Positions 24,546 through 62,739 of a DNA stretch of 64,000 nt are shown here, piece by piece. The translations under genes were made by a program, and so were the position numbers. Location: positions 8,414 through 72,413 of the IMG/VR virus record IMGVR_UViG_3300014913_000011. One strand, 5' to 3'. Each line of letters starts with the position of its first letter. Position 1 is the first letter of the stretch. Source of the DNA: a virus. Below the pieces are notes generated by a model. That model saw nothing but the letters and a program-made list of their open reading frames with translations, ran no database searches and was not told where the DNA came from.

Positions 24546-26690
24546 TTATTTCTTGGATTTTAGTAATGTGATTAACCTCTTTTTCTCACCTTCTGGTAAC
24601 TCTCTAATATTACTAATTAAACCTTCTACTTCTACATCTATATTAGTATTGTCCGAAGCTTTGGTTCTGGTTTGTTTTTGTTGAGTAGGACTATCTACCT
24701 TAGTTTTTTTTGTAACTGTTTTAGTATTATCTACTGGTTTCTTGTTTCCAGTTGGTTGTCCTTTTGGTCTACCCTGGTCTCCAGATGTTTGTTGAAAAGG
24801 ACTCCCAGGTATTCCTATACCCTCTGCTTCCAACTTTAACTCTTCTCGCATCTTCTCTACTTCTGCTTCTGGATCAAATCCCAAGACTTGCATAGTGGTA
24901 TGTCTGGAAACTAGTTTTCTATCAATCATTTGCATCATGGAAGCTCTAGTAACTGCATCACTGTCTGTTGTAATAACTGATTGTTGCCATCTCACTACCG
25001 GATAAGAATTAAAGCCATTTTGTTCTGCTATTAGCTTATATTGCTTATAAATCCAGGCAGTTATTGCTCTTCTAACGACATCTATCTGACTTTGAGTTGA
25101 CTTAGAAGATAGTACTGCTGCTGCATTTTGTATAGAGCTGCCGTCAATTATGGCTCTAGATATACCTAAACCTGCTTGAATGTCCATCTCTACTTGCTCA
25201 TACTTGGCCTTTCCAAGGATGGCACCTATATCGGGGGTAGTTATTTTCTCAATATCCAAAGTATGATTCCATACTACAGAGAATGCCTTTTGAGGGGTGT
25301 TAAAGGCTTCTGCTAGATCTTCTAGAACCTTTAGATCAGTAACTGGGTGGTCCTTATCCCCTACAGTTACCTTTAGAATATAGTTAAAAATTCCATCTAA
25401 GGTAGCAAAATCGGCTGCTACTAGTTCGTCCTTATAATCGATGGCATCAAAAATCCTGGATCCTCTAGGTTTCGCATAAGCTTCATGGTCATCCTTACGA
25501 AAAAATATGACATCTAATTCATCACCCGTGAATAGGTAGTCATCTCCCCCTATAGCGGAAGCTTTCATTTTGGTGGGGACCATTCCTATTAACTGTTTCT
25601 CCTCTGGACTCATTTCTCTCTTCTTTTGTCTCTCTACTGATTCCTTCAAACCAGATAAACCTTTAGAGGTGTAAGTGTAAGTAGCCCCACCAAAAAACCC
25701 TGAACTCTCTACATTCATATGTTTAGGATTTAATAGAGTATAAGCTATTGGCATCTTCCCGGATGCTTTTTTAGCTGCCACCTCTATTTCCCTCGCAATC
25801 GCTGCATCATACCTTTTCTTATCCTGTTTGGTCCATTTTTTTCCAGTTACTTTTTCATAAACATCTCTAGATAGTCGAAGAAGGGTTGCCTTCTCTTTTT
25901 GTTTTTTCTTAGTATTAGTGGGTATTTTCCCAGGCAATGATGAGATTCCACCTGTATTTGGCTCATAACTACCTGTTCCTGGCATGACATACGCTATACC
26001 ATACTTGAATAGGTTATTAATTATCTTGTCTACTGTCTTCAAAAAGTTAGTATCTAAAATCCAAGAATCATAAAACTCCTTTATAGCCTCATCTGCTATT
26101 TCGTTTACGAACCCTGTTGATGTGAAGTCTGTGAGTGCGTCTATAGCTGATCCATATATTCCAGATCTGTAATATTCAACTTCAGACCTTTCATATAGTT
26201 CAACTGCGTTCGCTTCGTCAGGTGTTTTCTCTCTGAGATCTAGTTCCTCATTGCTCAGAGGTGTACGGTATCTTTGATTCAGGGAGGCCATTTCTAGGGA
26301 AGCCATTTCTTTGTTGGTCTGTTTGACCTGCTTCACTACTTCTTCTATTCCTTTACCATTCTCTACTGCTTTAGCTATATCTCTTAAACCTGCTATCTCT
26401 ATCTGTCGAAGAAAGTTATCTCTTGTCTTGTTTAAATTTAATTTATGATATAGACTACCTCTATTAACCTGTCTCTCTGTAACTAGTTTATTTAATTGAT
26501 CTTTATTTGCAAAAAAATTTCTATCAGCATCAAATTCTGAAATACTTAACTCTGCCGATAATTTTCCGTCCTTTATGTCACTAACCTTACTAATTTGGAT
26601 ACCTTTAGGTTTTAATGACTTATTAACTTTTGAAATTATGGCTGCTTTATCTATCTTTTTATTCTTATCGTCGTCTTTTTTTTCTACCAC
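24546..26690 (-). CDS. Portal protein
   Basis: Directly downstream of TerL; YGSAIDALTDF, FFRKDDHEAYAKPRG, MIDRKLVSRHT...LGFDPEAEVEKM, GDQGRP tail. Confidence 0.85.
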   Translation of the reverse strand: MVEKKDDDKNKKIDKAAIISKVNKSLKPKGIQISKVSDIKDGKLSAELSISEFDADRNFFANKDQLNKLVTERQVNRGSLYHKLNLNKTRDNFLRQIEIAGLRDIAKAVENGKGIEEVVKQVKQTNKEMASLEMASLNQRYRTPLSNEELDLREKTPDEANAVELYERSEVEYYRSGIYGSAIDALTDFTSTGFVNEIADEAIKEFYDSWILDTNFLKTVDKIINNLFKYGIAYVMPGTGSYEPNTGGISSLPGKIPTNTKKKQKEKATLLRLSRDVYEKVTGKKWTKQDKKRYDAAIAREIEVAAKKASGKMPIAYTLLNPKHMNVESSGFFGGATYTYTSKGLSGLKESVERQKKREMSPEEKQLIGMVPTKMKASAIGGDDYLFTGDELDVIFFRKDDHEAYAKPRGSRIFDAIDYKDELVAADFATLDGIFNYILKVTVGDKDHPVTDLKVLEDLAEAFNTPQKAFSVVWNHTLDIEKITTPDIGAILGKAKYEQVEMDIQAGLGISRAIIDGSSIQNAAAVLSSKSTQSQIDVVRRAITAWIYKQYKLIAEQNGFNSYPVVRWQQSVITTDSDAVTRASMMQMIDRKLVSRHTTMQVLGFDPEAEVEKMREELKLEAEGIGIPGSPFQQTSGDQGRPKGQPTGNKKPVDNTKTVTKKTKVDSPTQQKQTRTKASDNTNIDVEVEGLISNIRELPEGEKKRLITLLKSKK

Positions 26691-29622
26691 TTTTCTGTGT
26701 TATAACTCCTCCGTTCCTTATTCTACGAATCCCGCTTGATCTTTGCTCTTGCATGAACTCCTGAGGTGTACAAACTAGTCTACCTTGTTGTATCATACCA
26801 ACATCTGGGCCAGATGTCAAACTTTGTTCGTTTATTTCCCTTATTATACCTGTTGTAGGTACACTTAAATCTTCTCCGGGCTTAAACCCCCGATCATACG
26901 CACATTTACCTGCTAATATGAAGGCTGTATATAAATCCTTTGTGTTCTTGTCCAGATTTGATTTTCGCGCTGCATTACTGCTGTTTGCATTTTTAGGTAA
27001 ATCATACCTTGGAAGTTCTTTAACACCTGAACTAGTTATGATGATTGAAGCTATTTGATCTATCATCTTCTGAACTAAATCTATTGTTTTTATCCTTCCT
27101 TTTGCGTCTGGTGAGCTTTGTACTTCTATTGGATTATTAGATTGAGGTAATTTTAATAAACCTTGCTCTAATAATGCCTTAGTATTATTATTAGCATCAC
27201 CTATAAATTCACTTACAAAATTACACATAGTAAGAATTCTCTTTCCTGTCATAAAAGGGCTTGACTCTTTCTCAATAATCTTTGTTTTTAGATGATCTCC
27301 CACGTCTAATTGACTTGGATCTGCTAGTAGATCCTGTAAAGTTCTACCTCCACCTCCAGAATCCATGTAAATTTCCTCAGGACTGAATTTGAATATTAAA
27401 TCAAGGATAGTTTTTGCCTGATCCTGGAAAGAGGCAGTGCCCCCTGGAATTTCTACTATATGAACTACCTTACATACGAACCCTAGCTCCATAATTACTA
27501 TTGCTGTAGAATCTCTATCCCTAGCCACGTCAATTCCGAATACGTATTTGGTGTTTTTATGTTTATTTAAATCTCTCTCTGAATATGGAACTAGATCCAC
27601 TTCCCTACATGCAGAAAGTAAAGCCATCGGAAATGCACCTGCTGAGTCTGCAATCCACTCAGCACACCACTCTGTAAGGAACATATGCGAAGGATCGTTA
27701 TTCATTGCATTATCAATTAGGTCTTGCTCTAAAAAACCTTCAGGTATATCATTCCAAGGAACAAAATTTAAGGAGTGCTTATTACTTCCTGCTTTCATCT
27801 GTTGCCAAAATTTTTGAATAGTAGCCCACCAGTAATTAAATTGGTAATATCCAGAAGTAATCGCGATATATCCATTATCAGTGGAGAGTAAGTTTTCTAT
27901 TAACTGTATATTATTTTTTCCTGACTCCTTATACTCGTTCTTAAGTTTTTCTAATTCTATTACCCTACCCATAGGATCAACTGATGTGGCAAGCATAGGT
28001 AGAATTACACTACTTAGAATTACCTCAGGGAGCTGAACACACTCATCAATTAATATCTCACTAAAACGTAGCCCTCTAATTTTTGCTCCATCTGTTCCTA
28101 CTGGCAAAGCATTTAAGTAACTAGACTGATAACCCGTTGCAGGTGGTTTGAGTATACACTTACAAGCATCATTACCTTCAGTTGGCTCTTTAAGAATGCA
28201 TTCTGCTAATAAAGGACTATCATCTACAAACTTTGTAAACTCTTTAAAAATAAGTTTTGACTGCCTGTAGGAAGGACCGAATACTCCCATTCTTGAGTTT
28301 GGATATAATAACATTTTAAGTGCTAAGTATACAGCACATAGGAACGTATTATGAGTAACGATATAATCATCGGTTACATATAGTTCTTCAGGATCATCTA
28401 TCTTTATGCAGGTTGCATAATCTTTCTTTCCCGTAAACTCTATTGATTCTATCCTAAGACCAAAATTTTTTTCTGAATATTGATCTGTTTCTTTAAATCT
28501 CTCTAATTTTCTAGGTGATGAAACCAGTTCTCTTTTATCTTTATACCTAATACCTAATCTATAAGACTTTCTTCCTTTAACCTTGTCTCCATACTTATCC
28601 GTATACTTAGTTACTCTCGCCTGTATTGTACATATTCCACCCAATTTCCAAATTAAGGTTTGCACTTGTGTAGCCAACTCTTTACTTGTCGTTGTGTAGG
28701 TTATACTTCCACCTTTCACAGTTGTTCTATCTGTATCTATTAAACCCTGGATTAATTCGATGGTTTGTTTTCTTGATAGATTCATGTAGGCTTCAGGTAT
28801 ACTTTTGTCTTGGGACTTTTTACCAAAAATATTTAACCTTTTTAGTTCTTCTTTTAGAGTGTTTATATGAACTCTGCCTAAATTTCTTAGTTTTTTATGA
28901 ACTATTACATAGTCATACTTACCTCTCTTGGAAAGTTCTAAATCTTCAGGTAGTGCCTTTGATACTTTCTCTAGTATAAAACCATCAGCTGAAGTAAATC
29001 CTACGTGATGTGTCATACATCCATCTCCAACTAAAGCCCCCAATAGGTACGGATGTATGTATAATTCTTTATCCACTTCTAATACTACATTCTCTGCGAC
29101 AGGTATTCTAGGATACCTATGATTTCTCTTAGCTTTACCACTACCAATATACTCTTTAATATCCTCTGTTTCTAATACTTCATACTGCCCAGATCCATTT
29201 ACCCCTCGGACTGTCCATAAGTGTTCTTTAGTACACTCACAGGTTCTTCCATCATAGAAGTTTACTTTATAGATGTCTTGCTTACCCTGTGGAAATATAC
29301 CTATGACATTACTTAAGCTGCCTTTAGGAGTAATAACTTGGTCACCGATTTTAATATCTTCAATTTTTACCCAACCATTAACTGTTAATACTTTAGATCC
29401 ATTAACAGTCGCTTTACCAAATCCTCTAGAAGCAGTAAGTTGGTTGAACTTGCTCTGCCACCAATCCATTAAAATCTTCCCCTGCACTGGTAATAATGTC
29501 ACAGGTCTACCATCTCTTACTAATAAATGATTAGCAGCTATTATAGGATTCTGCCTATAAAAATGAATTAATCTTGTTATATCGTCTGGTAAAGTATTAC
29601 TTCTAGATTGAATTAAAACCAT
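26665..29622 (-). CDS. terL: Terminase large subunit, intein-containing
   Basis: Walker A ASRGFGK|T; IRGLR; Walker B ILIDE; RNase H-like nuclease FGIDVARDRDSTA. Confidence 0.95.
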   Translation of the reverse strand: MVLIQSRSNTLPDDITRLIHFYRQNPIIAANHLLVRDGRPVTLLPVQGKILMDWWQSKFNQLTASRGFGKATVNGSKVLTVNGWVKIEDIKIGDQVITPKGSLSNVIGIFPQGKQDIYKVNFYDGRTCECTKEHLWTVRGVNGSGQYEVLETEDIKEYIGSGKAKRNHRYPRIPVAENVVLEVDKELYIHPYLLGALVGDGCMTHHVGFTSADGFILEKVSKALPEDLELSKRGKYDYVIVHKKLRNLGRVHINTLKEELKRLNIFGKKSQDKSIPEAYMNLSRKQTIELIQGLIDTDRTTVKGGSITYTTTSKELATQVQTLIWKLGGICTIQARVTKYTDKYGDKVKGRKSYRLGIRYKDKRELVSSPRKLERFKETDQYSEKNFGLRIESIEFTGKKDYATCIKIDDPEELYVTDDYIVTHNTFLCAVYLALKMLLYPNSRMGVFGPSYRQSKLIFKEFTKFVDDSPLLAECILKEPTEGNDACKCILKPPATGYQSSYLNALPVGTDGAKIRGLRFSEILIDECVQLPEVILSSVILPMLATSVDPMGRVIELEKLKNEYKESGKNNIQLIENLLSTDNGYIAITSGYYQFNYWWATIQKFWQQMKAGSNKHSLNFVPWNDIPEGFLEQDLIDNAMNNDPSHMFLTEWCAEWIADSAGAFPMALLSACREVDLVPYSERDLNKHKNTKYVFGIDVARDRDSTAIVIMELGFVCKVVHIVEIPGGTASFQDQAKTILDLIFKFSPEEIYMDSGGGGRTLQDLLADPSQLDVGDHLKTKIIEKESSPFMTGKRILTMCNFVSEFIGDANNNTKALLEQGLLKLPQSNNPIEVQSSPDAKGRIKTIDLVQKMIDQIASIIITSSGVKELPRYDLPKNANSSNAARKSNLDKNTKDLYTAFILAGKCAYDRGFKPGEDLSVPTTGIIREINEQSLTSGPDVGMIQQGRLVCTPQEFMQEQRSSGIRRIRNGGVITQKSGRKKRRR
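28348..29412 (-). mobile_element. Class 3 intein (355 aa, Ala1) with LAGLIDADG domain, in the TerL Walker A motif
   Basis: Starts ATVNGSKVLTVNGW; block B CTKEHLW; block F ATCIKI; ends YIVTHN|T; PYLLGALVGDG. Confidence 0.92.
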
Positions 29623-34129: not shown

Positions 34130-34942
34130 TTAAGTTAAAATTACTGGGCCAGTATTAAGTATAAATACTTGATTTTCATAGTGGGAGGAAGGCTTCCTAT
34201 CAGAAGTATAGAACTGACTCACGCCTTTTACTGAAATATTCAATACTTTTGATGACTTATATATGATTACTGGTTCAATACAGATGCACATACCGGGTAT
34301 TAGTGGGTGTCCAGAGCCGGGTTTCCCTTTGTTAGGTACGTTAGGTGCTTCGTGTAGGTCTAACCCAATACCATGTCCCTGAAAAGACTCAAATATTTTA
34401 AACGAAGATCCTGAGTCCCAATCTTCATCCTTTCTAAGCTTTATTACTTCTTTATTTACAGCATGTCCTATATCAGATGTTGTATTTCCAGGTATGGACT
34501 TCTCAAATCCCTGGTAGAAAGCCTCTTTAGCTAATTTAACTAGTTCTTTGTGTTTGGATCTTCCGTCTTCTCCTATAATAACAGTCCTTGCTGAGTCAGT
34601 GCAATAACCATTTTTATGTCTAAGGCCAAAATCTATGGATAAGACATCTCCTTTTTTAAGTTTCTTATTATTTGGAAATCCATGTACTATCTGTTCTCGA
34701 TTTGATACACACGTACAATATGGGTATCCATACATTCCTTTGAAAAGCGGTGTTCCACCCGACTTTTCAATAAGATCTTCGGCTAAATTCTCTATATCTT
34801 CAGTGGTGTTGCCTTCAACAGCTTGAGTAATTAGTTTATTTCTTATATCTTTACCTAGAATTCCAGCTTCTTTCAGTTTTTCGAGTGCGTCCTTACTGTA
34901 GATATTTACTCCGGTTTTTAAAGTGATTACCTCTTGTCCCAT
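34130..34942 (-). CDS. map: Methionine aminopeptidase type I
   Basis: CVS.REQIVHGFP, GDVLSIDFG, GYCTDSART, GHGIGLDLHEAP, ICIEP, SSHYENQV. Confidence 0.95.
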   Translation of the reverse strand: MGQEVITLKTGVNIYSKDALEKLKEAGILGKDIRNKLITQAVEGNTTEDIENLAEDLIEKSGGTPLFKGMYGYPYCTCVSNREQIVHGFPNNKKLKKGDVLSIDFGLRHKNGYCTDSARTVIIGEDGRSKHKELVKLAKEAFYQGFEKSIPGNTTSDIGHAVNKEVIKLRKDEDWDSGSSFKIFESFQGHGIGLDLHEAPNVPNKGKPGSGHPLIPGMCICIEPVIIYKSSKVLNISVKGVSQFYTSDRKPSSHYENQVFILNTGPVILT

Positions 34943-35025: not shown

Positions 35026-35895
35026 TTATCTACCTACTATATTCCAAGACTTTCCATTAAACACTAGTCTAACAAATCCGTAATTTTCCCTTATGAATAT
35101 TTTAGACTGTCCATCTACTGTTTCCTGCTTACCTTCAGGTAATTTAAACCCTTCTATAACTATGGATGCAAAATAACTACTTCCACTTCCATCCTTAATT
35201 ACTAACTCGTGTCCTTTCTCACCCTTTGGGAGCTTAACTCCAAATAGGGCACTAGAAGAGTTGTTTACTATTACATTTCTATCTGATCTAACTACTACTG
35301 CAGGTGCAGAATTTATGACTCTAATTGATGGTCTCTCAATACAATCCTCTGTCTTTAGGGCCTTACCATTTACTGTTAAGGCTCCTTTTACCTCTAAGTG
35401 ACCAATTATCTCTTGTTTCTCTTTTTTTCTAAGTACAGCAAGTTCAGTCTTTAGAAAGCTATCTAATTCTTCTCTGGCTACTCGACCTTCTAATCCCTTC
35501 TTAGTTGCGAATTCAGCTAACTTATTAGGATTAACTATCTTAGCCAATTGCTCTTCGGTAACTAGTTTTTCTAATTCCCGCCTACTTGCTAGATCTTTTA
35601 ATTCACACTTTGTCGCTAACTGCCCTAAACCTAAACTATCTATTACTGCTCTTAGATACTCTTTAGATATTAAATCTGTCAAGTTTTTCTTTAAGGCGAA
35701 GCCATTTAGGTCTACAGTTAAATTTGCAGCGTTTAATTCTTCCTTAGTTGCATACTTAGCCAGTTCTTCTCTTTTAGCTAAAGGTGCTAAGTCTGCCTTT
35801 TTAGCAAATCCACCTAATTCCTTTCTAGTTACCGCATCAGGATCTGCCTGTGCTGCGGGCTGTGAAGGTATTGTTTTCTTCTTATAGTCTATCAT
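35026..35895 (-). CDS. Fiber-like protein with ~9-residue LAxKxEL repeats and a C-terminal beta domain
   Basis: FAKKADL/LAKREEL/YATKEEL/LATKCEL repeats; C-terminal VKLP..G..LVIKDGSG...VDG...YG.VRLVFNGKSW. Confidence 0.6.
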   Translation of the reverse strand: MIDYKKKTIPSQPAAQADPDAVTRKELGGFAKKADLAPLAKREELAKYATKEELNAANLTVDLNGFALKKNLTDLISKEYLRAVIDSLGLGQLATKCELKDLASRRELEKLVTEEQLAKIVNPNKLAEFATKKGLEGRVAREELDSFLKTELAVLRKKEKQEIIGHLEVKGALTVNGKALKTEDCIERPSIRVINSAPAVVVRSDRNVIVNNSSSALFGVKLPKGEKGHELVIKDGSGSSYFASIVIEGFKLPEGKQETVDGQSKIFIRENYGFVRLVFNGKSWNIVGR

Positions 35896-35908: not shown

Positions 35909-36565
35909 CTACTTATTTAAATACTCTTTTATACCAAAGAAGATTGCATCTGCTATCTCCTCATGCTTATCTGTCAGGAACTTTACCTGATCAGGGTGAT
36001 TAATAAACTCACACTCTACTAAACAACATGCCTGTACTAAGTGTTTTCTTAGCACATAAAACTTACTACCATTCTTTATTCCACGATCTTTATGCTTAGG
36101 AAAATCAAGTATTAAGTTATTTTGTATACATGCAGCTAACTTTTTTGATTCAGGTCTGGATTTATTGAAGAAAGTTTCTATACCTTGGGCTGGTGTTCCA
36201 TCATTTGAATTTGCATGAATAGAAATGAAGATATTAGGATTTTCTTTTTTAATAATTGCTACCTTGTCTCTTAAATGTGATAAAGTATTATTATCAATCC
36301 TAGTCATAACTACCTTATAACCAGCCTCATCTAATTTATATGCTAGTTGTTCTGAAATATCAAGTACGGTATCTCTTTCGTACACCAGCTCACCTTCTAG
36401 CTTTCCTACTGCTCCTGGATCCCTTTTTCCGTTCCTACCCCCGTGTCCAGGATCAATCACTATCTTTATATTTGAATGACTTTTAGTATTCTTGGATACT
36501 TCAGTAACTGACTGCCTTTTAAAGATCAAAAATATATTCTTTATTAAGTCTAGAAAAGTGTTCAT
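35909..36565 (-). CDS. N-acetylmuramoyl-L-alanine amidase (Amidase_3), putative endolysin
   Basis: IVIDPGHGG, E(R)D, FISIHANS, GIETFF, CLVECEFINH. Confidence 0.93.
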   Translation of the reverse strand: MNTFLDLIKNIFLIFKRQSVTEVSKNTKSHSNIKIVIDPGHGGRNGKRDPGAVGKLEGELVYERDTVLDISEQLAYKLDEAGYKVVMTRIDNNTLSHLRDKVAIIKKENPNIFISIHANSNDGTPAQGIETFFNKSRPESKKLAACIQNNLILDFPKHKDRGIKNGSKFYVLRKHLVQACCLVECEFINHPDQVKFLTDKHEEIADAIFFGIKEYLNK

Positions 36566-36567
36566 AG

Positions 36568-37653
36568 TTATTCATCCTCTGCAGCTAAGGCTATAAATGC
36601 TCCCTCAGCAACTGCCTCCAATGGCCTTCTCGCATGACAAACTTCTTTAACTTTAAAAGGTAATTTACTTTCTATTTTTTCAAACTCTTCCTTAAAAACC
36701 TCTAGAAAGTCTCCAGCTAAGGAGGTACCTCCAGATACTACAATTTTAACTGGCTCTAAAAACCTAGGCTTAGATTCTAACGAATCAATTTTATTAACTA
36801 TACTTTCTACCATATACTTAATTAAAGCTTTGTAATAGGAAGAGATAGCTATTTCAGCCATTTCATTTCCTGGATTCTTAATACTAATTCCACTCTCTTT
36901 AGTGTAAGTCATTAAACTGGGAGTAATATCACTTGCTTTTGGGTCCTTAGGATCATATCCTAAACTTGTCGCAGCGGAGTAATCTACATAGTCGCCTCCT
37001 TTACTTACTGAGAAGGTGGTAATAACTTCAGCCATGTTAGTTATACATACGTTTGTCATGCCTGACCCACAACTTATTGCTATTCCAGTGTAGTCCTCTT
37101 CTTCTAATTCACAGAATACAATTGCTTGAGCTTCATTTATAGCCTTTCCTATAAAACCTAAATCTGCTAGTACTCTTTCGATTACATTCTTATGATACTC
37201 AATATCAAATGGAGCGTCCTCAGGTGAAGCTGGTACACTATATACTACTAACTCGTTTGGTACAACAGGTTCTCCTAGTAACTCTTTTAATAATATTTTG
37301 AAGAGTGGAAGTGCCTGAGCCTCTCTCGGAGAAATTACACCTTTATGCATTGGCCTTCTTACAGTCATTTGTTTCTCTATAGCTACATTTAAAGAATCAT
37401 TTCCTAAGATATGGAGTTTCTTATCTTCTTGGATATAACTTACACCTGATTTATCTAAACCTTTTTTCATCATTTTAAAAACTAAGTCACCTCTAGGTTG
37501 AAGTTCTAGAAAGGAATCCCTTACTGATTTTGTCTCTACATCCCCAGATTCTAACATTCTACTCTCCACTAGGAAACCTGTCCCAACGTCTAGCCCTCTC
37601 CCTGGTAAATACTTTTTAGCTTCCATAGGTTTATTTTCCTTTTCCATCTTCAA
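36568..37653 (-). CDS. Actin-fold ATPase (volactin-like)
   Basis: Phosphate-1 GLDVGTG, connect-1 INEAQA, phosphate-2 ISCGSGMTNV, KGGDYVD, adenosine VVSGGTS, connect-2 PLEAVAEGA. Confidence 0.88.
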   Translation of the reverse strand: MKMEKENKPMEAKKYLPGRGLDVGTGFLVESRMLESGDVETKSVRDSFLELQPRGDLVFKMMKKGLDKSGVSYIQEDKKLHILGNDSLNVAIEKQMTVRRPMHKGVISPREAQALPLFKILLKELLGEPVVPNELVVYSVPASPEDAPFDIEYHKNVIERVLADLGFIGKAINEAQAIVFCELEEEDYTGIAISCGSGMTNVCITNMAEVITTFSVSKGGDYVDYSAATSLGYDPKDPKASDITPSLMTYTKESGISIKNPGNEMAEIAISSYYKALIKYMVESIVNKIDSLESKPRFLEPVKIVVSGGTSLAGDFLEVFKEEFEKIESKLPFKVKEVCHARRPLEAVAEGAFIALAAEDE

Positions 37654-38041
37654 TAAGTCTCCTTTTCCTGTAAACTAAGTTACCCTTGTTTATTTCTGAT
37701 ATCGCCTTTAATATAGTATTTTTTACACTTTTGGCATTGTCTTTTAACTCACAGCTACAAAATCTAAGTATACTTAAGTTATATCTTTTATGGTATGCAA
37801 TACAAGCTATGTCTTTCTTTATCCTAAGTAGCTGTCTATCTGTAGGTTTTTTTTGAATCTTACATTTAAAACAGTATGAATGAAAGTAATTTCCATCTGC
37901 TTGAATACTTAATTTATAACTTGGAAGGTAAGCATCAACATTATAAGTTCCAAGTCTATATTCCCTAACATAAGGTATACCCTCATCAGCTAAGATGTCT
38001 AACAGAATTTTCTCTATATCAGTAAGTTTTCTATTGGTCAT
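37631..38041 (-). CDS. Vsr/DUF559-like PD-(D/E)xK endonuclease
   Basis: TDIEK...EY...YNVDAYL...IQADGNYFH...KDIA...LRF. Confidence 0.8.
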   Translation of the reverse strand: MTNRKLTDIEKILLDILADEGIPYVREYRLGTYNVDAYLPSYKLSIQADGNYFHSYCFKCKIQKKPTDRQLLRIKKDIACIAYHKRYNLSILRFCSCELKDNAKSVKNTILKAISEINKGNLVYRKRRLIEDGKGK

Positions 38042-38636
38042 TTTTTAATGCCTTCAGCCTTTTAATCCTATCCTTAATATCTGAAGATCCTTTCTTAGAC
38101 TCAATCTTAATCTTAGGCTTCAGATTACTCACCCTAGTTTCGTCTATTGGATTGACAAACACTCCATCAGACTTATTATTAATATTATCAATTGGATATG
38201 ACTCTTGTGTGTCCTTATTTATTACTACAGTGGTATTCTTAGATTTTAACTCTTTAACCTCTTCTTTCATACTCCTTAATTCATTCAGAATTTCTAGATT
38301 TAAATCCTGAGATTGTTTTGACTGTTCAGATACTATATCTTTGATGCCTCTTAAATCTGAGTTACTTCTATGTATATTAATCTCCTGAATCTGGACATTT
38401 TTTAAATCTATATCCAACTTATTCTTAACCCTATCTAATAGTAATTGAACTGACATGGGTTTCTGTCTTACTGAATATGTTTTAAGTAATTGATTTTTCA
38501 GTGTATTTAATATTTGTATGTAGTCAGCTTCTAATACATATCCACCTAAAACAGCACTCTGAAACTCTGTAAGTGGGCCTGAATCGATTCCTAATTGTTG
38601 AATTTGTTGAACTAACTTATTTAAGTCTATACGCAT
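38031..38636 (-). CDS. Coiled-coil protein with a C-terminal amphipathic helix (candidate actin adaptor)
   Basis: First gene of the actin operon; ends SSDIKDRIKRLKALK. Confidence 0.6.
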   Translation of the reverse strand: MRIDLNKLVQQIQQLGIDSGPLTEFQSAVLGGYVLEADYIQILNTLKNQLLKTYSVRQKPMSVQLLLDRVKNKLDIDLKNVQIQEINIHRSNSDLRGIKDIVSEQSKQSQDLNLEILNELRSMKEEVKELKSKNTTVVINKDTQESYPIDNINNKSDGVFVNPIDETRVSNLKPKIKIESKKGSSDIKDRIKRLKALKNDQ

Positions 38637-38707
38637 ATACAGTATATAGTATACTAAGAAAAAAATACTTATATGTTAGGTAGTTAACAAATAGATTATA
38701 GTGCTAC

Positions 38708-38929
38708 TTAATCTGGTGAGTCTAATAGTTCTTCAGGGTCTTCTAGCTCGTATATTAAATCACCAAAAAACACAATAGCTTCTTCTTTTGATGTAAAATA
38801 ATACCAACCTTCTATCGGATAGGTATAGGAGCTGTGGTCAGCTATTGCTAAAGTATATGAACTACTTTTTACCTCATTTGGAGCAATATACAACTGCCCT
38901 TCTATTACTTTAAAGAATGCCTGTATCAT
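38708..38929 (-). CDS. Small hypothetical phage protein
   Basis: YTYPIEGWYYF motif; start reassigned to MIQAFF (AAGGGA SD). Confidence 0.6.
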   Translation of the reverse strand: MIQAFFKVIEGQLYIAPNEVKSSSYTLAIADHSSYTYPIEGWYYFTSKEEAIVFFGDLIYELEDPEELLDSPD

Positions 38930-39127
38930 GAGATTTCCCTTTATAAAACTACAGTCCAAGTCTATTACAAATGTTATAACAGTTTCTATAAGTATAACTA
39001 CCTATAGGTAATGATGTACAATTAATTAGGCAACTATAGTAAATCACTTTAAATATAGTACAATTGTCTAATTTTCAATATAACTGAATAATTAAACTAA
39101 AATCTCTATAGTTGCATTAAATATAAT

Positions 39128-39475
39128 TTAGTACCTAAACAACTTAACTGGCTTATCTAATTTTGTCATAGCACTTAGCATGGATCTACTTCCAGGACTT
39201 TTTCCATCCCAAAACAATAGTAACATGTCTCCATAGTCTGCCATTGATTTATTTCTAATAGGTCCAGCTGACGTTCCGTATGTTTTCCAGTCCGGTTCAA
39301 AATTTGTTATCTGTATTTTACTTAAATTTGCCCAACATTCTCCTAAACTATCAGCTCCCTTAGCTGCTCCTGATACTATCTCTGATATTTTGATCTCCTT
39401 TGATATGTCATTTAACGCTGCAAATAATAACCTAGCATCATCAAAATCTCGTCCACCTGCTACAATAACTTTCAT
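39128..39475 (-). CDS. DUF2493/YspA-like SLOG family protein
   Basis: VIVAGGRDF, IVSGAAKGAD, AGPIRN, FWDGKSPGS. Confidence 0.88.
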   Translation of the reverse strand: MKVIVAGGRDFDDARLLFAALNDISKEIKISEIVSGAAKGADSLGECWANLSKIQITNFEPDWKTYGTSAGPIRNKSMADYGDMLLLFWDGKSPGSRSMLSAMTKLDKPVKLFRY

Positions 39476-39478
39476 ATA

Positions 39479-39664
39479 CTAACACCTGTATTCTATAAAA
39501 TACCCGCACTTATTACATGTACACCTATAGTATTTAAGATTTGGGAATTTGATTTTGTTTTCTTCACCTAGTAATCTGGGCCTGTATGGTTCTTCTATCT
39601 CTTCCGAATATAGGTCTTTGCTTTTACATTTATCGCAATAATAATTTTTCAGGTCTATACTCAT
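39479..39664 (-). CDS. Small Zn-ribbon protein
   Basis: CDKC...CNKCGY. Confidence 0.65.
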   Translation of the reverse strand: MSIDLKNYYCDKCKSKDLYSEEIEEPYRPRLLGEENKIKFPNLKYYRCTCNKCGYFIEYRC

Positions 39665-40533
39665 AGTCTTCTCTCTTGTATAAAGTATATTAATTTAGTT
39701 AAACGCAGAAAAGAATTATCGGAATCTAAAAAATTAGAAAAAACTTTGTCGATGTAGTCAGTTATATCTAATAAATTTTGGAAACCATATCTATTAGCTA
39801 CAGCTCTATCTTGAGATATGAAATACCCATTCCTGTCCCAGTGTATTTTTGCCTGGTCTAAGCTACCTAATGATAGGGCTATGTAAGAGTTTAATCGCTT
39901 TATTAGTGTAGCCCTTAGTACTTGTATCGGTACAGTCTCTATTTTCTTTGCAAATAAATAACAATCTTCTCTGCCTTCAAATAGGGATGTTATGAAATCC
40001 AATACATCAAAATTTGCTTTATAAATAGATACAGATCCCAAAGCCTCTTCTTCGGACATTACTTCTAAAGCTGTACTGAATCTTCTCAGTTCATTATGTA
40101 CACTCTGTTTATTATCGGATGAAACCATTGTAAAAAAATCTAGGTGTTTAACCGATATATTAAATTCCTTAAATAATTTCTTTAAGAACGCCTTTTTAGA
40201 CTTCTTTACAGATAAATCTACACATTCCTCAAGATTTGATAACCTTTTTAATCTTTTATAGAGCTTCTTTCGTTTATCTAATTTCCCTACTACCCAAATA
40301 ACTTCAGTCTGAAAAGGTGCTTCTAGTATTGATAATAATTTAACTGCATCAAACTTATCTACCCCAACAAAACCTGTAACTCCTGAGGTGTTAAGTAAGT
40401 TAGGCTGATGCATTAAGACAAATTGCTCAAAAGACAAATCTGAGCAGTACTGTAATTTAATATTTTCAAAGTCATTCCTTACTTCAAACAATGAACTATC
40501 CAATGACTCAGATATAAAAACTTTTTTAAGCAT
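39661..40533 (-). CDS. holA: DNA polymerase III delta (HolA)-like clamp loader subunit
   Basis: KLDKRKKLYKRLK, NELRRF and FDVLDFITSL motifs; coupled to the dnaX-like gene. Confidence 0.6.
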   Translation of the reverse strand: MLKKVFISESLDSSLFEVRNDFENIKLQYCSDLSFEQFVLMHQPNLLNTSGVTGFVGVDKFDAVKLLSILEAPFQTEVIWVVGKLDKRKKLYKRLKRLSNLEECVDLSVKKSKKAFLKKLFKEFNISVKHLDFFTMVSSDNKQSVHNELRRFSTALEVMSEEEALGSVSIYKANFDVLDFITSLFEGREDCYLFAKKIETVPIQVLRATLIKRLNSYIALSLGSLDQAKIHWDRNGYFISQDRAVANRYGFQNLLDITDYIDKVFSNFLDSDNSFLRLTKLIYFIQERRL

Positions 40534-41599
40534 CCTTCCACAACCTAGCTAATTCCACTGGTATCATGTCCACTACTGCAGACTTGTTACTAGTTTTTTT
40601 AAGTTTAAGTTCTATATCTAAGGATTTTTCCCAAAGTTTGTGAACCCTGTTTCCTATGAAAGCTTGAAAGGCTTTATCACTCATATTACATTCCGGGAAC
40701 TTGGCCCATATTTTTCCGAGTAAATCGTCAATGTTACTCTTTAGTTCGGGAACTAAGTCTTTAGCTGCAAACCCAAGTCTTAAATCTGCAGTAAACTGTT
40801 GCAACCTATGAATACCTTGTACTGGATCTACAATTTCTGGACTAAATACCTTAGATTGTTTTCTCATTTCGAAAAAGTCTTGAAATAAATATGCGTACAT
40901 GAGGCTTGATAAGTTCTTTGAACTTACTACTCCTAAAGTCTTTGTGATGTCTAATTCAGTTTCGTCATTTGCATGTAAGGTTAAAATCTTCTGGAGAGCC
41001 ACGATAGCCCCCCGCATAGATCCTTCTCCAGATTCTACAGCCAAATCAATTAAAGCTTGAGGTAGTTTCTTTTTCTCTAATTTTAGTATCTCTTTTAACC
41101 TAATATCAATTATACTATTAGGTATTCGGTTAAATCTATGTAATTCACATCTTGACTGAACAGTGCTAGGTATCTTCTCTTTCTCAGTAGTAATGAAGAT
41201 GAACCTAACTCCTGGTGGAGGTTCCTCTATGGTTTTTAAAAGTGAGTCAAATCCAGCTGCACTGATTCTATGGGCTTCATCAAAAATGTAAGTTTTACAA
41301 TCACCTTCTATCGGATGATGTACTATCTCCAGTTTTAATGCACGAATATTATCTATTTTACCGTCACTAGCAGAATCCTTCTCAATTGTTCCGCAGGGAT
41401 GTTCATTTAACACTTTACCTATAATCCTACCTAAGGTCGTTTTCCCTGTTCCTGGAGGTCCATACAGTAAGATACTCTTAGGAAGTACATTTTCCTTTAA
41501 ATATTGCTTTATTACTTTAGTGACACTTTCTTGGCCTGAAATATCTCCTAAATTGTCTGGGCGATATTTAAGATCTAAATCCAACTCAAATTCTGACAT
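40526..41599 (-). CDS. dnaX: DnaX (gamma/tau)-like clamp loader ATPase
   Basis: KYRP, GQE, GPPGTGKTT, IFDEAH, LLKTIEEPP, TVQSRC, GSMR. Confidence 0.93.
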   Translation of the reverse strand: MSEFELDLDLKYRPDNLGDISGQESVTKVIKQYLKENVLPKSILLYGPPGTGKTTLGRIIGKVLNEHPCGTIEKDSASDGKIDNIRALKLEIVHHPIEGDCKTYIFDEAHRISAAGFDSLLKTIEEPPPGVRFIFITTEKEKIPSTVQSRCELHRFNRIPNSIIDIRLKEILKLEKKKLPQALIDLAVESGEGSMRGAIVALQKILTLHANDETELDITKTLGVVSSKNLSSLMYAYLFQDFFEMRKQSKVFSPEIVDPVQGIHRLQQFTADLRLGFAAKDLVPELKSNIDDLLGKIWAKFPECNMSDKAFQAFIGNRVHKLWEKSLDIELKLKKTSNKSAVVDMIPVELARLWKDA

Positions 41600-43389: not shown

Positions 43390-44203
43390 CATGTAAAATT
43401 TTATGAACCTTTTTACAAGACCTATACATTTGATTTTTAATAGAATATTGAGTTAAACTGGGTAGTTCCAGACACGTAATAGAGCCTTTAGGCCGAAAAC
43501 TTTTAGTATCAATGCCAATTCGATCATACTTAGGAGTACCTGTCCTCGACTTTATAAAACGAGGTTTGTTGTAAGAGGTATGTCCATGAATCACCGTTTT
43601 TCCAAAATCTAAATCAGATATTAAAAAACTATTCCTTATCCATAATAAATCCTCAGAAGCTTGATCTTCAACTTTTACACCTGGCATAAGACCAGCATGT
43701 ACAAAAATATAATCATCAGTCTCTAACATTAGATTTAGACTATTTAAAAATTTTAAATGATCTATAGGAAATTTCTTACGCATAGTTTTTGGTGAATCTA
43801 GATGCATAATACTCTCACCAGTGTGGTAACACATTCCAACTTTGCCTTGAAGTCCATAACTCTTATAGAACATGTCTCCACCATTTACCATATGCCATTG
43901 ACCGAAAGTTTCTCCAGGGTATCCTAAAAACCCAAGTGCCATTGACTCATGATTACCTTTTAAAAAATAAGCAGAACTACCTAATTCTTTCTTTACCTTT
44001 AATAATATATCTATTACATTAGAAGAACTAGGACCTCTATCAATATAATCACCCAGAAAAACCAGTAAATCTTCACCTACTTTAAACTTTTCTGTATTAA
44101 CTACATGATCTAATAAAATACTTAACTCTATAAATTGGCCATGAATATCTCCAATAGCAAATATTCTACCTTTAGGGTTTGGTAGTCTGATACGACTGTT
44201 CAT
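43382..44203 (-). CDS. Ser/Thr protein phosphatase (metallophosphoesterase, lambda PP/PrpA-like)
   Basis: GDIHG, GDYIDRG, GNHE, FVHAG, LLWIR, HGHT, IDT. Confidence 0.92.
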   Translation of the reverse strand: MNSRIRLPNPKGRIFAIGDIHGQFIELSILLDHVVNTEKFKVGEDLLVFLGDYIDRGPSSSNVIDILLKVKKELGSSAYFLKGNHESMALGFLGYPGETFGQWHMVNGGDMFYKSYGLQGKVGMCYHTGESIMHLDSPKTMRKKFPIDHLKFLNSLNLMLETDDYIFVHAGLMPGVKVEDQASEDLLWIRNSFLISDLDFGKTVIHGHTSYNKPRFIKSRTGTPKYDRIGIDTKSFRPKGSITCLELPSLTQYSIKNQMYRSCKKVHKILHVD

Positions 44204-44454
44204 TTTCTATATTGCCAGTATCCTTCAGATGGTTTAAATCTCCACCAGGTATATTCTTTAGTAGTTATCCATCTTCTAGATTTTTCACTGCAATATACAG
44301 TAGTTGCTGCACTTGGATGTTTGAATCCACAGTATGGACACATGCCTATAGAGTAAAACTCTTCATGATCAGTTAGAATAGTATCACATTCTATGCAGCA
44401 TGAAACTAATTGCCAACATCCTACCTTAATTGCATCTTTTGGCACTTCTTTCAT
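44200..44454 (-). CDS. Zn-finger protein (paralog of 44451..44750)
   Basis: CIEC...CPYCG...GYWQ. Confidence 0.7.
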   Translation of the reverse strand: MKEVPKDAIKVGCWQLVSCCIECDTILTDHEEFYSIGMCPYCGFKHPSAATTVYCSEKSRRWITTKEYTWWRFKPSEGYWQYRK

Positions 44455-44750
44455 AAGAATTTTCCATACTTAGTAATTTTTACAATATCTCTATCCCAAT
44501 TTTCGTCTAGTCTAGATTTAACTTGCCAGTATCCCATGTTATTCCATTTCCAGAATTTCCATAAGGGTTCAGTTCTTATAAACCTCTTAGATGAGTGGAA
44601 TACCTTATCACCCACAAATTTTGAAATACATCCACAATATCTGCAGACTTCCTGAGCATGGTAGATTTCATTATAGGTTAAGTGATGATTGCATTCAATA
44701 CAAGCTCTAGTATCTCGCCATTTGCCAATTTGATAAATTTTTTCTGTCAT
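44451..44750 (-). CDS. Zn-finger protein (paralog of 44200..44454)
   Basis: CIEC...CRYCG...GYWQ; start MTEKIY with GAGGG SD. Confidence 0.7.
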   Translation of the reverse strand: MTEKIYQIGKWRDTRACIECNHHLTYNEIYHAQEVCRYCGCISKFVGDKVFHSSKRFIRTEPLWKFWKWNNMGYWQVKSRLDENWDRDIVKITKYGKFL

Positions 44751-44766
44751 ATTTATTTCCCTCATC

Positions 44767-44860
44767 AAAAGAAATACACGGACACAGTGCTAACACACTT
44801 GGAATTAATAGGAGCTGATAGATGATGAGGAATTAAGTAGTCTTTCCTGCCCCCGTGTAT
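44767..44860 (-). ncRNA. Candidate small RNA or structured leader (~90 nt, paired ends)
   Basis: Begins 7 nt after TTGACA-17-TATTCT; 5' AUACACGGGGGCAG pairs with 3' CUGUGUCCGUGUAU, followed by UUCUUUU. Confidence 0.5.
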
Positions 44861-44866
44861 GTTATT

Positions 44867-44895
44867 AGAATAACCTTTCTAGAGCTACTTGTCAA
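44867..44895 (-). promoter_or_regulatory. Sigma70-type promoter TTGACA-17-TATTCT
   Basis: -35 at 44895-44890, -10 at 44872-44867. Confidence 0.65.
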
Positions 44896-44915
44896 GTGTT
44901 CTTAAGTGAATAATT

Positions 44916-45179
44916 TTATTTTATTTCTTCGTCATCTGCTTGAAGTGGGATACTGCGAGTTGAGGCAGTATTTTTATGAATTTTTACTCCGTAGGAAGAA
45001 ACATCAATCGACTCGGAGTGACTTAAAATTTTATGGAAAGCTTTTATTAGTTCAGATTTAATTTGATTATCTGACATGCCTTCAGGAAATATTTCTAAAT
45101 CACCTAGGTTAATTCTTGCTGAAATTGAAAATTCTACTAAGATTTCATCTGAAATTATGTAAGATTTTTTATTTGACAT
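44916..45179 (-). CDS. Hypothetical protein
   Basis: AGGGG SD; TGTACTAT upstream. Confidence 0.6.
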   Translation of the reverse strand: MSNKKSYIISDEILVEFSISARINLGDLEIFPEGMSDNQIKSELIKAFHKILSHSESIDVSSYGVKIHKNTASTRSIPLQADDEEIK

Positions 45180-45209
45180 AGATTGTTCCCCTGTATTGTA
45201 TATAGTACA

Positions 45210-45500
45210 TGGATTAGTTGAGATTTACCTAATTAATTTAACTAGTTATACCTATAAAATCTATAAGTATTTAATATCATTAGGAATTCACACTTATTTT
45301 ATATTAAATAATATTAAATATAAATAAATAATACTAATATGTTTTATATAGCTTTCGATTTTTTACTGGACCCATACTAAGTACTTGATTTTAGGTAGGT
45401 TATAAAGATATTCATCATTTAGAGTAACTTATCCCGATTTTATACTAATTTTAATAATATTTCGTATTTTGTATTGAGCGTTCATGCTTGGTTTTCTTAA
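45210..45500. other. AT-rich non-coding strand-switch region (candidate origin or divergent control region)
   Basis: Gene orientation flips here; ATATTAAATA tandem at about 45301-45330. Confidence 0.45.
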
Positions 45501-45618
45501 ATTCGCTCATATTTGCCTTCTATGGTCCTTTTGTGGATTCTACATTGTCCGGGGTAGGTTTACAAGTTTCTCCTTGATAGCAGTAGACAGGGGACTGATT
45601 TAGTGCTATCATTGGATC

Positions 45619-45828
45619 ATGTTTAAAGCATATTCCGTATTCATATCCGAAGCTCGAAGGGAGGGAGCCTACTTGGTGAGCTGTCCAGAACTGTTTAATG
45701 ATTGGCTTGAGATAGATCCTGAAAAGCAAAGTATATTTGAGGCTATTGAGCTGGTTTTAATAGCTAATTTAGAAATTGAAAACTTTAGTTTAGTATTTTT
45801 TGGTGAGACCTATTCATTAGCTATTTGA
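45619..45828 (+). CDS. HicB-like small protein
   Basis: YSVFI...EGAYLVSCPEL...SIFEAIELVL resembles the HicB N-terminal domain. Confidence 0.4.
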   Translation: MFKAYSVFISEARREGAYLVSCPELFNDWLEIDPEKQSIFEAIELVLIANLEIENFSLVFFGETYSLAI

Positions 45829-45834
45829 AAATAG

Positions 45835-45863
45835 TTGACTTAATTGCTTTTTGTAAGTATACT
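45835..45863 (+). promoter_or_regulatory. Sigma70-type promoter TTGACT-17-TATACT
   Basis: Exact spacing, upstream of the exonuclease operon. Confidence 0.75.
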
Positions 45864-45894
45864 AGCTTTAATCAGTGTATAATGGAGATGATAG

Positions 45895-46602
45895 ATGGTT
45901 AAGAAAAGAAAACTAAGAACAAATTTCACGCATCCAATAGTGGTATTCGATACTGAAACGGGGGGGTTAAATTCAGATGTAGAAGTTAATTGGAACCTGA
46001 ATCTAGCATCAAAAATAGAAAAAGGGACAAAGATTGAAGGTACGGTTGCTAACCCTGCAGCCCCCGTTTTAGAAATAGCAGCTGTCGTTCTAAGTCCAAT
46101 AACCTTAAAAGAGATTGATTATTTTCACACCTATGTCGGACCAGACAACGGTCAGACTTTAGAAGAGTATTTAAATTTATGCCATCCAAAGGCTTTAAGT
46201 GTTAATGGATTCAATAAAGGCGAGAGACGAGAAGCCCTAAAGAACGCTCCCACAGCAAAGGAGGCTTTAAAGGACTGGGTTAATTGGCTACAATTTGGTC
46301 ATAGCTCACCACAAAAATTTCTACCTTGTGGACAGAACGTTCGTTTTGATATTGACATGATTAACTCTCTCGCTATGCGAAGTGGTGTGGATTTTCAATT
46401 TAGAACTAATCACATACTCGAATTAATTGCCTACTCATTAATTTATTTTTCACTTCCTAATACAGGTACTGTGGCTAATTATAAGTTAACTACAATAGCA
46501 GAATGTTTGGGAATCCCCACAGATCAAGCACACACTGCATTAGCAGATGTACGTATGACTGCGGATTGTTTACGCATTTTCCTAAAGGAGTTCACTGGAT
46601 AA
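45895..46602 (+). CDS. DEDDh 3'-5' exonuclease (DnaQ/epsilon-like)
   Basis: FDTETGG, GQNVRFD, AHTALADV. Confidence 0.9.
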   Translation: MVKKRKLRTNFTHPIVVFDTETGGLNSDVEVNWNLNLASKIEKGTKIEGTVANPAAPVLEIAAVVLSPITLKEIDYFHTYVGPDNGQTLEEYLNLCHPKALSVNGFNKGERREALKNAPTAKEALKDWVNWLQFGHSSPQKFLPCGQNVRFDIDMINSLAMRSGVDFQFRTNHILELIAYSLIYFSLPNTGTVANYKLTTIAECLGIPTDQAHTALADVRMTADCLRIFLKEFTG

Positions 46603-62440: not shown

Positions 62441-62739
62441 AAATATTTATTATATTATATTATATTATATTACTTTAGCTACAACATTGAGCTAACTTGC
62501 CAAATTTTTCTGTGGGTTTAAGTTTTATTCAATCCCAGAAGTATTAAGAAATTTACATAGTCAGTGTAGTCAATCTTCCCAGCTTTTATAGTACTATCAC
62601 CTAGTTTCTCACATAACTTTAGTAACTTTTGCACATCTTGATGAATTTATAACTTTTTGAATACGTCACAGTTATTCTTTTTTAAAGTCAGTATTGAGTT
62701 AGTTTGTATTGTATGTTAAACTGGTACTTAGGAGTACGA

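Follow-up and report, generated by a model that had tools for sequence, protein, structure and literature searches.

A volactin-family actin with a conserved upstream partner in an uncultured large phage: a candidate two-component cytoskeleton

To our knowledge, the cytoskeletons that phages build for themselves are mainly tubulins (PhuZ, TubZ), and AlpC is the single phage actin to have been studied. The tubulins form spindles in nucleus-forming jumbo phages (reviewed in PMC8314001). In the AlpC/AlpA/alpS system of the Corynebacterium glutamicum prophage CGP3, an actin and its adaptor are needed for efficient viral DNA replication (PMC4446434, PMC5539076). Outside phages, the actin VolA of Haloferax volcanii forms dynamic filaments whose tips touch the membrane (PMC10869688), and the CdpA-like HVO_2016 adjoins this volactin, HVO_2015 (PMC12126565). 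Here, we analysed a stretch of 64,000 nucleotides of viral DNA (positions 8,414 to 72,413 of the IMG/VR virus record IMGVR_UViG_3300014913_000011; hereafter, the window). A reading made from the letters alone had noticed in it an actin gene near an open reading frame (ORF) of 201 amino acids (aa), and had proposed a phage cytomotive system. We find that the actin belongs, by its sequence, to the volactin family and that the 201-aa ORF has kept its place upstream of the actin in related phages. On balance, we favour the interpretation that the two make up a two-component phage cytoskeleton, consisting of a volactin-family actin and a dedicated adaptor.

The actin is 361 aa long when read from the TTG at 37653. 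In the database gene model (P0001), it begins with the ATG at 37647 and has 359 aa. The ATG is the more likely start, and an AGGAGA box lies 10 nt ahead of it. Searching Pfam, we obtained 194.7 bits for the Volactin family PF25216 (E 3.5e-57; cut-off 35), against 32 bits for MreB_Mbl and 15.4 bits for Actin; a six-frame genome search gave 194.4 bits for Volactin. No Pfam ParM family matched at E <=0.01, and the protein has no matching PHROG family. Nucleotide-binding positions that never or hardly vary among 69 diverse relatives are retained (D20, G22, T23, E172, S192, G194, G196, G306 and G307 in the 359-aa numbering), so the ATPase motifs are intact, as the sequence-only reading had it. The phosphate-2 loop reads S-x-G-x-G throughout the family; in MreB and ParM, this loop is D-x-G-G-G. 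Identity to volactin-type genes of Haloarcula, Halogeometricum and Natrinema reached 34-35% over 95% of the query (E 2e-50 to 6e-48), and five haloarchaeal megaplasmids were the only matches among 72,556 plasmid records.

The fold agrees with this assignment. The AlphaFold model of the actin was confident (predicted local distance difference test, pLDDT, 90.1; predicted template modelling score 0.87), and its top matches among solved structures were MamK (5ljv_A; E 2.5e-14, template modelling score 0.65) and MreB (1jcf; 8.6e-14). Sequence identity to these best structural matches was only 16-18%. MamK, MreB, BeeR, crenactin, Arp and actin made up the best ~30 fold matches, while ParM (1mwm, 4a61) appeared at rank 31. 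A profile of the clade returned nothing at E <=0.001 when searched against the PDB sequences.

Constructing a quick IQ-TREE phylogeny of 84 rows, we thinned 131 unique actins with lengths of 300-440 aa at 75% identity, which left 77, and added three haloarchaeal genes and four MreBs. HVO_2015 itself was absent from the comparison, and the haloarchaeal megaplasmid genes stand for its family. The 80 volactin-family rows were separated from the four bacterial MreBs with a Shimodaira-Hasegawa-like approximate likelihood ratio support of 100. The window actin fell in a six-row phage clade (support 98) with loci L002, L003, L093, L095 and L097. This close clade lies within a 13-row group (99) that also holds a clade of 332-334-aa actins, two contigs of a WOR-3 metagenome-assembled genome (MAG) and L099. 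The haloarchaeal genes form their own clade adjoining bacterial MAG copies (95). Pfam scores, tree, fold search and haloarchaeal identity thus all agree with the preference for volactin over MreB or ParM, and the protein is, judged by its sequence, an intact phage-encoded actin of the volactin family. It shares with VolA the family PF25216 and a partner gene directly upstream on the same strand in the haloarchaeal copies. It differs in being phage-borne (on a replicon with a peptidoglycan amidase) rather than archaeal and in its separate tree branch, and the rod-to-disk shape role of VolA has no obvious phage counterpart.

We then turned to the 201-aa ORF. It has no Pfam match above the gathering cut-off (one was sub-threshold, E 0.0088), none to a DNA-binding family, and no PHROG family; besides itself, a database search gave two relatives (54% and 50% identity). 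The actins of L002 and L003 show 52-55% identity to the window actin; at both loci, the order clamp loader, orf290, partner, endonuclease, actin, methionine aminopeptidase (MetAP) and orf113 is kept, and the partner homologs are 24-26% identical (E 5e-7 and 2e-8). A hidden Markov model (HMM) of the partner matched 12 ORFs (9 unique), among them those of L095/L096 and L097, a truncated copy in L093 and one from a WOR-3 MAG. All matches with visible context lie just upstream of an actin (two database proteins lacked context). Within the close clade, all loci with enough sequence ahead of the actin (L002, L003, L093, L095/L096, L097) have a partner homolog there. Going by this conserved gene order, we regard the 201-aa ORF as a conserved partner of the actin. 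The sequence-only reading had set the two genes next to each other in one operon. Their common strand and their conservation stand, while the adjacency does not, as the two are separated by a 136-aa ORF that overlaps each of them: its start shares bases with the stop codon of the 201-aa ORF, and its end runs into the actin start. The overlaps indicate that the three genes are tightly coupled.

The partner ends in DIKDRIKRLKALKNDQ, with a helix predicted at residues 187-199. Aligning seven partners, we found L15, F160, V161, N162, P163, D165, K173, L194 and L197 invariant in all seven. As the invariant residues cluster in the last 45, these C-terminal 45 residues are the conserved core of the protein. 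The AlphaFold model of the partner was middling (pLDDT 67.9). It places helices at residues 5-14, 20-30, 36-50 and 61-90, in a block with a pLDDT of 74-90 up to residue 80, then a long helix of low confidence at 99-133, disorder at 137-157 and finally the tail helix. The basic C-terminal helix described from the letters is thus also predicted here, while the coiled coil described with it comes down to the one long helix of low confidence.

A large phage clade (41 tree rows) has its own conserved gene of ~210 aa upstream of the actin. Its module reads f6, f1 (~460 aa), f5 (~175 aa), partner, actin, a second f1 paralog and a zinc-ribbon protein; PHROG gave only weak hints to virion proteins for it, and in another clade a portal gene lies nearby. 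Using hhalign, the window partner family and the ~210-aa family (69 sequences, with window-family members removed) aligned C-terminus to C-terminus at E 2.9e-5 and a probability of 73.6%, whereas six unrelated neighbour families used as controls gave E >=0.46. The cleaned HMM of the ~210-aa family also matched six members of the window family (E 9e-5 to 4e-4).

A full-length partner HMM detected the partner in just 64 of 113 unique loci, and an HMM of the tail alone did better. Iterated over 6670 ORFs, all those of 50 aa or more in the loci and the window, the tail HMM converged at 119 matches. Directly upstream of an actin lie 84 of them, and a further 30 lie upstream within 3 kb on the same strand; with the synteny, these 114 bear out the earlier claim that the gene is conserved beside actin homologs. 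The remaining matches comprise one that overlaps the actin start (L074), one directly downstream (L082), two database proteins and one in a locus without a recognised actin ORF. None of the 119 is on the opposite strand. Among the 117 unique actins preceded by 600 nt or more of sequence, 90 have a partner by this HMM. On the 72-kb contig, the window partner (E 2.4e-10) was the only match among 359 ORFs; the next best had E 3.1, and no second tail-bearing ORF was found there. Unique partners of 130 aa or less number 26 of 89, and 17 of these 26 start with a membrane-helix-like segment in a crude hydrophobicity test. Short, membrane-like partners and long, soluble ones carry the same tail; hence the tail is constant and the rest of the protein varies.

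Two variants of this layout were seen. In a Desulfobacterales MAG, the tail-bearing partner (L082:7026-7568) lies directly downstream of the actin, and a 459-aa ORF lies upstream. In a four-row tree clade (L004, L011, L112, L130), a small upstream ORF, often with a membrane-like N-terminal helix, has a different tail of the ...SSFDGKRIGQIKGE type and no tail-HMM match; this tail may be a second docking motif.

Performing co-folding of the actin (28-row alignment) with partner residues 150-201 (7-row alignment), we obtained interface scores (ipSAE) of 0.63, 0.71 and 0.64 (median 0.64), whereas all three controls gave 0.00. At least 66% of the contacts were common to the runs, the partner pLDDT was at least 59, and there were 86-98 confident contacts. 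Of 157 solved complexes, 116 reach the ipSAE mark, as do 2 of 215 mismatched pairs; these counts apply only roughly here because custom alignments were used. On the partner, the predicted interface covers residues 168, 171-185 and 187-201. In the model, residues 171-185 run along the actin edge strand 35-42 of the first beta sheet, while helix 187-199 touches actin residues 178-186 and 340-359; the actin contact regions are the helix 172-180, which follows the catalytic-site Glu172, and the C-terminal helix 345-358. We take the site of helix 187-199 to be about the cleft between subdomains IA and IIA, where the C-terminal peptide of ParR sits on ParM, and presumably the same cleft is gripped by many eukaryotic actin binders. 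The co-folding model is in keeping with the earlier suggestion that the C-terminal helix binds the actin, and the partner tail probably docks there.

Putting these results together, we infer a mechanism, its timing, polymerisation and cargo included. The 359-aa actin would be made by the phage in the infected bacterium and, judging from its fold and its homology to Haloferax VolA, would polymerise with ATP into dynamic filaments. The 201-aa adaptor would consist of a four-helix domain (residues 1-90), the long helix (99-133), a disordered linker and the conserved tail of ~45 residues. Its tail would dock through residues 171-185 on edge strand 35-42 and through helix 187-199 in the cleft 172-180/345-358, and its N-terminal part would tie a phage cargo to the filament. 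As cargo, a replication or assembly structure seems preferable to a DNA centromere. By analogy, the system would work like an adaptor-coupled actin of the ParMR or AlpAC type, without being a member of those families.

Several observations weigh against this interpretation. The tail HMM found no match in 27 of the 117 unique loci; among these misses, L095 was caught by the other partner HMM, and in seven (L016, L017, L155, L099 and L083-L085) a similar tail was recognised only by eye. The hhalign link between the two partner families spans only ~40 C-terminal columns. Searching the partner fold against 48,161 PDB representatives returned generic helical bundles only (best Z 7.1), with no clue to the cargo. 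Conservation is no higher at the actin residues of the predicted interface (mean column identity 0.39) than in the remainder of the protein (0.45) and so adds no support for the docking, and the docking score may in part stem from solved actin-peptide complexes (ParM-ParR, for example) that the model remembers. The record covers ~30% of the genome. Finally, the stretch was in no listed RNA run; the only runs listed for it were two sediment-metagenome DNA runs, one of them probably its source.

Instead of carrying cargo, the tail protein might regulate polymerisation by capping, nucleating or sequestering, in the manner of WH2, thymosin or profilin-type binders. The predicted site is extensive, with 86-98 confident contacts, and includes the cleft 172-180/345-358 that the next subunit possibly needs, and in one clade the partner is only ~100 aa long. 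Against this, the N-terminal parts are large and varied: soluble and ~150 aa in some partners, membrane-like helices in the 17 of 26 short partners mentioned above, and multi-transmembrane DUF7139 in haloarchaea. Such variety is more easily understood if these parts are interchangeable cargo or anchor modules than if the protein is purely a regulator, and we consider the regulator unlikely as the whole explanation. The two roles are mutually compatible, and ParR both regulates and adapts.

A little less probable, in our judgement, is DNA segregation in the manner of ParMRC or AlpAC, in which the partner would bind a phage centromere, for example at 38640-39125, and the filament would move genomes. 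The layout is analogous, with an adaptor gene upstream of the actin and a predicted C-terminal peptide docking; AlpC and AlpA of prophage CGP3 operate in this way (PMC5539076); and in the relative P0132, the actin is fused to a weak ParB-HTH match (E 3.5e-4, below cut-off). We checked the candidate centromere region. It is AT-rich, as the sequence-only reading had said (GC 28.4% versus 35.0% for the window, near the first percentile, 27.9%, of 486-nt windows; its non-coding parts have 21-22%), although it is not purely non-coding, as it contains an 83-aa ORF. No repeat array or iteron set was found in 38500-39700, only two-copy matches of 11-24 nt. Moreover, the intergenic region and the SLOG, orf61 and orf83 genes are missing in L002 and L003; at these loci, the partner gene borders directly on that of the clamp-loader small subunit. 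The partner lacks a DNA-binding Pfam match, and its model, a plain helical bundle without a sign of a ribbon-helix-helix or helix-turn-helix domain, points neither to DNA binding nor away from it; the actin lacks a ParM match. The idea of a ParR-like DNA adaptor acting on this region therefore finds no backing at the locus.

Like ParM/ParR/parC, the window encodes an actin-fold filament protein and a small adaptor, encoded upstream, with a C-terminal helix predicted in the inter-domain cleft; unlike it, its actin is not of the ParM family, it has no parC-like repeats, and the partner alignment of seven sequences gives no sign of a ribbon-helix-helix domain. With AlpC/AlpA it shares a phage-borne actin and adaptor, but AlpA binds DNA and the window partner shows no hint of that; AlpC is set beside the window actin by description, not by sequence. 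MamK and MreB, its best structural matches, differ from it by their low sequence identity, and MreB forms a separate clade. PhuZ and TubZ are likewise phage-encoded cytomotive filaments of very large phages, though of another protein superfamily; Pfam Tubulin had no match in the contig or in five related records (two at least 92% complete and the rest fragments, and a divergent PhuZ could escape).

Two further proposals can be set aside quickly. Aid to wall remodelling or lysis with the Amidase_3 enzyme, whose gene does lie directly downstream of the actin as the sequence-only reading reported and whose product matches endolysin PHROG 435 (2e-38), is very improbable, since the adjacency is confined to this window, all 80 related viral loci lack an amidase homolog up to 6 kb from the actin, and in L002 and L003 nothing separates the actin from the MetAP gene that follows it. 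Both the amidase gene and the 289-aa ORF thus look like an insertion specific to this phage. A non-filament enzyme or chaperone of the acetate and sugar kinase/Hsp70/actin superfamily (sugar kinase, Hsp70-like or EutJ-like) is scarcely credible: EutJ does occur among the fold matches, but as the first non-filament member only at rank 38, behind a best ~30 made up of filament actins, Pfam places Volactin far above all else, and the founding volactin forms dynamic filaments in vivo (PMC10869688).

The adaptor-coupled cytoskeleton thus remains our preferred interpretation, and the 136-aa ORF lodged between its two genes calls for separate treatment. Its DUF559 match was below the cut-off (17.8 bits, E 3e-3; cut-off 20.6), and its PHROG matches were 559 (HNH endonuclease, 7.6e-5), 3339 (homing endonuclease, 3.2e-4) and 13076 (endonuclease, 1.3e-3). 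Longer homologs of 260-292 aa in L080 and L014 match DUF559 at 1.5e-13 and Vsr at 2.3e-10. The 136-aa ORF retains the conserved E, VD(F) and QxDG..H columns (AD for VD, with the D kept). By HMM, this endonuclease family stands immediately before the actin start in 10 unique loci among 138 unique actins: five of the six members of the close clade (the window, L002, L003, L093 and L097) and five scattered loci (L014, L073, L080, L105 and L111). L095/L096 show an empty site, with the partner gene 44 nt from the actin and no endonuclease. The GC content of the 136-aa ORF is 29.4%, against 36.2% for the actin gene.

In relatives, the actin gene also carries an intein. The closest database relative of the window actin, P0121 (85% identity), has an intein with a LAGLIDADG domain between Ser192 and Cys193 in the phosphate-2 loop, and P0124 and about a dozen other, more distant relatives of ~700 aa are interrupted at the same position. 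The window actin has no intein; the homologous site is near 37069-37074. That a conserved gene has repeatedly been entered by selfish nuclease elements of two types suits the idea of a homing endonuclease more than that of a functional component of the filament system. From its sequence and distribution, it is quite likely that the 136-aa ORF encodes a free-standing, selfish homing endonuclease of Vsr/DUF559 type, which would be parked at the 5' end of the actin gene. The less likely alternative is that the nuclease belongs to the filament system in the close clade.

The surroundings are those of a phage. The record carries capsid, portal, terminase and clamp-loader genes, which supports the supposition that the replicon is a phage. 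It has 72,413 bases and a completeness estimate of 30%, which gives a phage of ~240 kb; similar sizes follow from the two nearest records, of 51 kb (18%) and 102 kb (36%). Positions 1 to ~44,800 of the window form a single long gene block on the minus strand, and the features around the actin are listed in Table 1. A promoter and terminator scan found 28 sites, against 34.7 expected in shuffled sequence; with a yield no higher than in shuffled sequence, the promoter-like site before the partner gene is only a candidate.

Table 1. Coordinates of features around the actin gene, in positions of the window
Feature	Position	Strand	Basis
Clamp-loader large subunit	40526-41599	-	Pfam and PHROG matches
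290-aa ORF (orf290)	39661-40533	-	Weak clamp-loader match
61-aa ORF (orf61)	39479-39664	-	ORF list
YspA-type SLOG protein	39128-39475	-	Pfam
83-aa ORF (orf83), within AT-rich stretch	38708-38959	-	ORF list
Promoter-like candidate before partner gene (TAGACT, 18 nt spacer, TATAAT)	38695-38724	-	10 of 12 consensus positions
Partner (putative adaptor) gene, 201-aa ORF	38031-38636	-	Synteny with actin
Partner N-terminal helical domain, residues 1-90, presumed cargo-binding	38367-38636	-	AlphaFold model
Partner predicted docking tail, residues 157-201: FVNPID motif, short strand region, amphipathic basic helix 187-199	38034-38168	-	
136-aa ORF, putative Vsr/DUF559-type endonuclease	37631-38041	-	Weak profile matches, stronger in relatives
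Volactin-family actin gene	36568-37653	-	PF25216
Amidase_3 endolysin	35909-36565	-	Pfam 4.3e-40; PHROG 435
289-aa ORF	35026-35895	-	ORF list
M24 methionine aminopeptidase (MetAP)	34130-34942	-	Pfam

Farther downstream lie a deoxynucleoside monophosphate kinase, the large terminase (26665-29622), the portal (24546-26690) and the major head protein (19291-20364). The terminase ORF, on the minus strand, is unusually long (985 aa), and its N-terminal third matches primase, DnaC-like and helicase PHROGs; it may represent a fusion or an insert. The MetAP gene is kept beside the actin in L002 and L003, and the phage also encodes the YspA-type SLOG protein. An aminotransferase (PHROG 3139) is encoded at 62704-63837, and no tRNA genes were found in the window. 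At ~44,200-45,900, the coding strand changes from minus to plus and the sign of the GC skew flips, with the cumulative skew minimum near 44-46 kb; this switch may mark a divergent transcription point or a replication origin.

We also checked how widely the actin family is spread. Performing tblastn on deposited phage records, we found that 2 of 50,697 encode a relative, both being uncultured huge phages of 485 kb and 595 kb; as only uncultured phages matched, no cultured-phage actin resembles the window actin at E <=1e-5. Protein searches gave 908 relatives (word-based) and 815 representatives at E <=1e-3, of which 261 at E <=1e-30 (exhaustive). A scan of IMG/VR with the single protein gave 77 pattern matches, none confirmed, whereas the alignment-based scan succeeded, with actin relatives encoded by 232 of 264 pattern matches. 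We kept 80 IMG/VR loci; the contig measures 100 kb or more for 24 of them and 200 kb or more for 9. Metagenomes gave at least 487 relatives among the 599 matches listed. GTDB, with one genome per species, yielded 11 loci, all from MAGs, a lower bound because the scan patterns, taken from alignment A1 since the diverse alignment A2 was too variable for this purpose, cannot match haloarchaeal sequences; an HMM search of a sample from the phylum of one such MAG found the family in 9 of 301 genomes. Outside archaea, the volactin family is thus largely but not exclusively phage-borne. In the openly searchable literature (subscription journals and supplements lying outside the search), we found no description of phage volactins. 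The family also has fused forms, namely tandem double actins of ~730 aa and actins whose N-terminus is extended by a long acidic or coiled-coil stretch (P0123, P0131, P0134; P0125-P0128, P0132, P0139).

Relatives of the pair occur outside phages. On three haloarchaeal megaplasmids, the ORF upstream of the volactin-type gene (L173:2920-3828, L174:2794-3693 and L175:2974-3897) encodes a DUF7139 multi-transmembrane protein of ~300 aa, which also has an acidic linker and, in tandem, two motifs similar to the docking tail of the phage partners. Searching 166 local haloarchaeal ORFs with the tail HMM, only these three matched, and weakly (E 0.0043, 0.26 and 3.9). A DUF7139 ORF beside the haloarchaeal actin agrees with the published adjacency of HVO_2016 and HVO_2015 (PMC12126565). 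The window partner differs from HVO_2016 in being a soluble protein of 201 aa without a hydrophobic N-terminal helix, transmembrane segments or DUF7139; the tail motif alone is in common, and weakly.

In a Saganbacteria MAG (L084:1-10900), a volactin actin (312.6 bits) and an upstream tail-like protein of 150 aa lie amid a complete gas-vesicle cluster, comprising four GvpL/F, GvpG, GvpO, GvpK, two GvpA/J, a GvpN-like AAA protein, Hsp20 and a Cdc48-like AAA protein. By eye, GvpL/F-like ORFs flank the pair in Elusimicrobia and Omnitrophota MAGs too (L083, L085). This context suggests that the gas-vesicle-cluster actin positions gas vesicles or helps to assemble them, a parallel to organelle positioning by MamK. 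A literature search by title found no paper on a gas-vesicle-associated actin. Together with the haloarchaeal loci, the gas-vesicle loci suggest that the tail is a family-wide docking code, which is a lead rather than a result.

In summary, a whole actin family is present in hundreds of uncultured large-phage contigs and is nearly missing from deposited phage records and PHROGs. A dedicated partner with a compact docking peptide points to a specific interaction that is open to testing, and the tail peptide is a concrete candidate for the 'volactin-binding factors' of Haloferax. More tentatively, volactin and its tail-bearing partner could form one modular positioning cytoskeleton, in which the tail would be the common docking code and the N-terminal part would select the cargo. 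If this is true, the anchor or cargo modules would be a CdpA-like membrane protein in haloarchaea, a gas-vesicle-cluster partner in several uncultured bacterial phyla, and membrane-spanning or soluble proteins in hundreds of large phages. Large phages without tubulin would then, in many cases, organise replication or virion assembly with an actin of their own, and the N-terminal domain of the partner would offer a route to what large phages move inside the cell.

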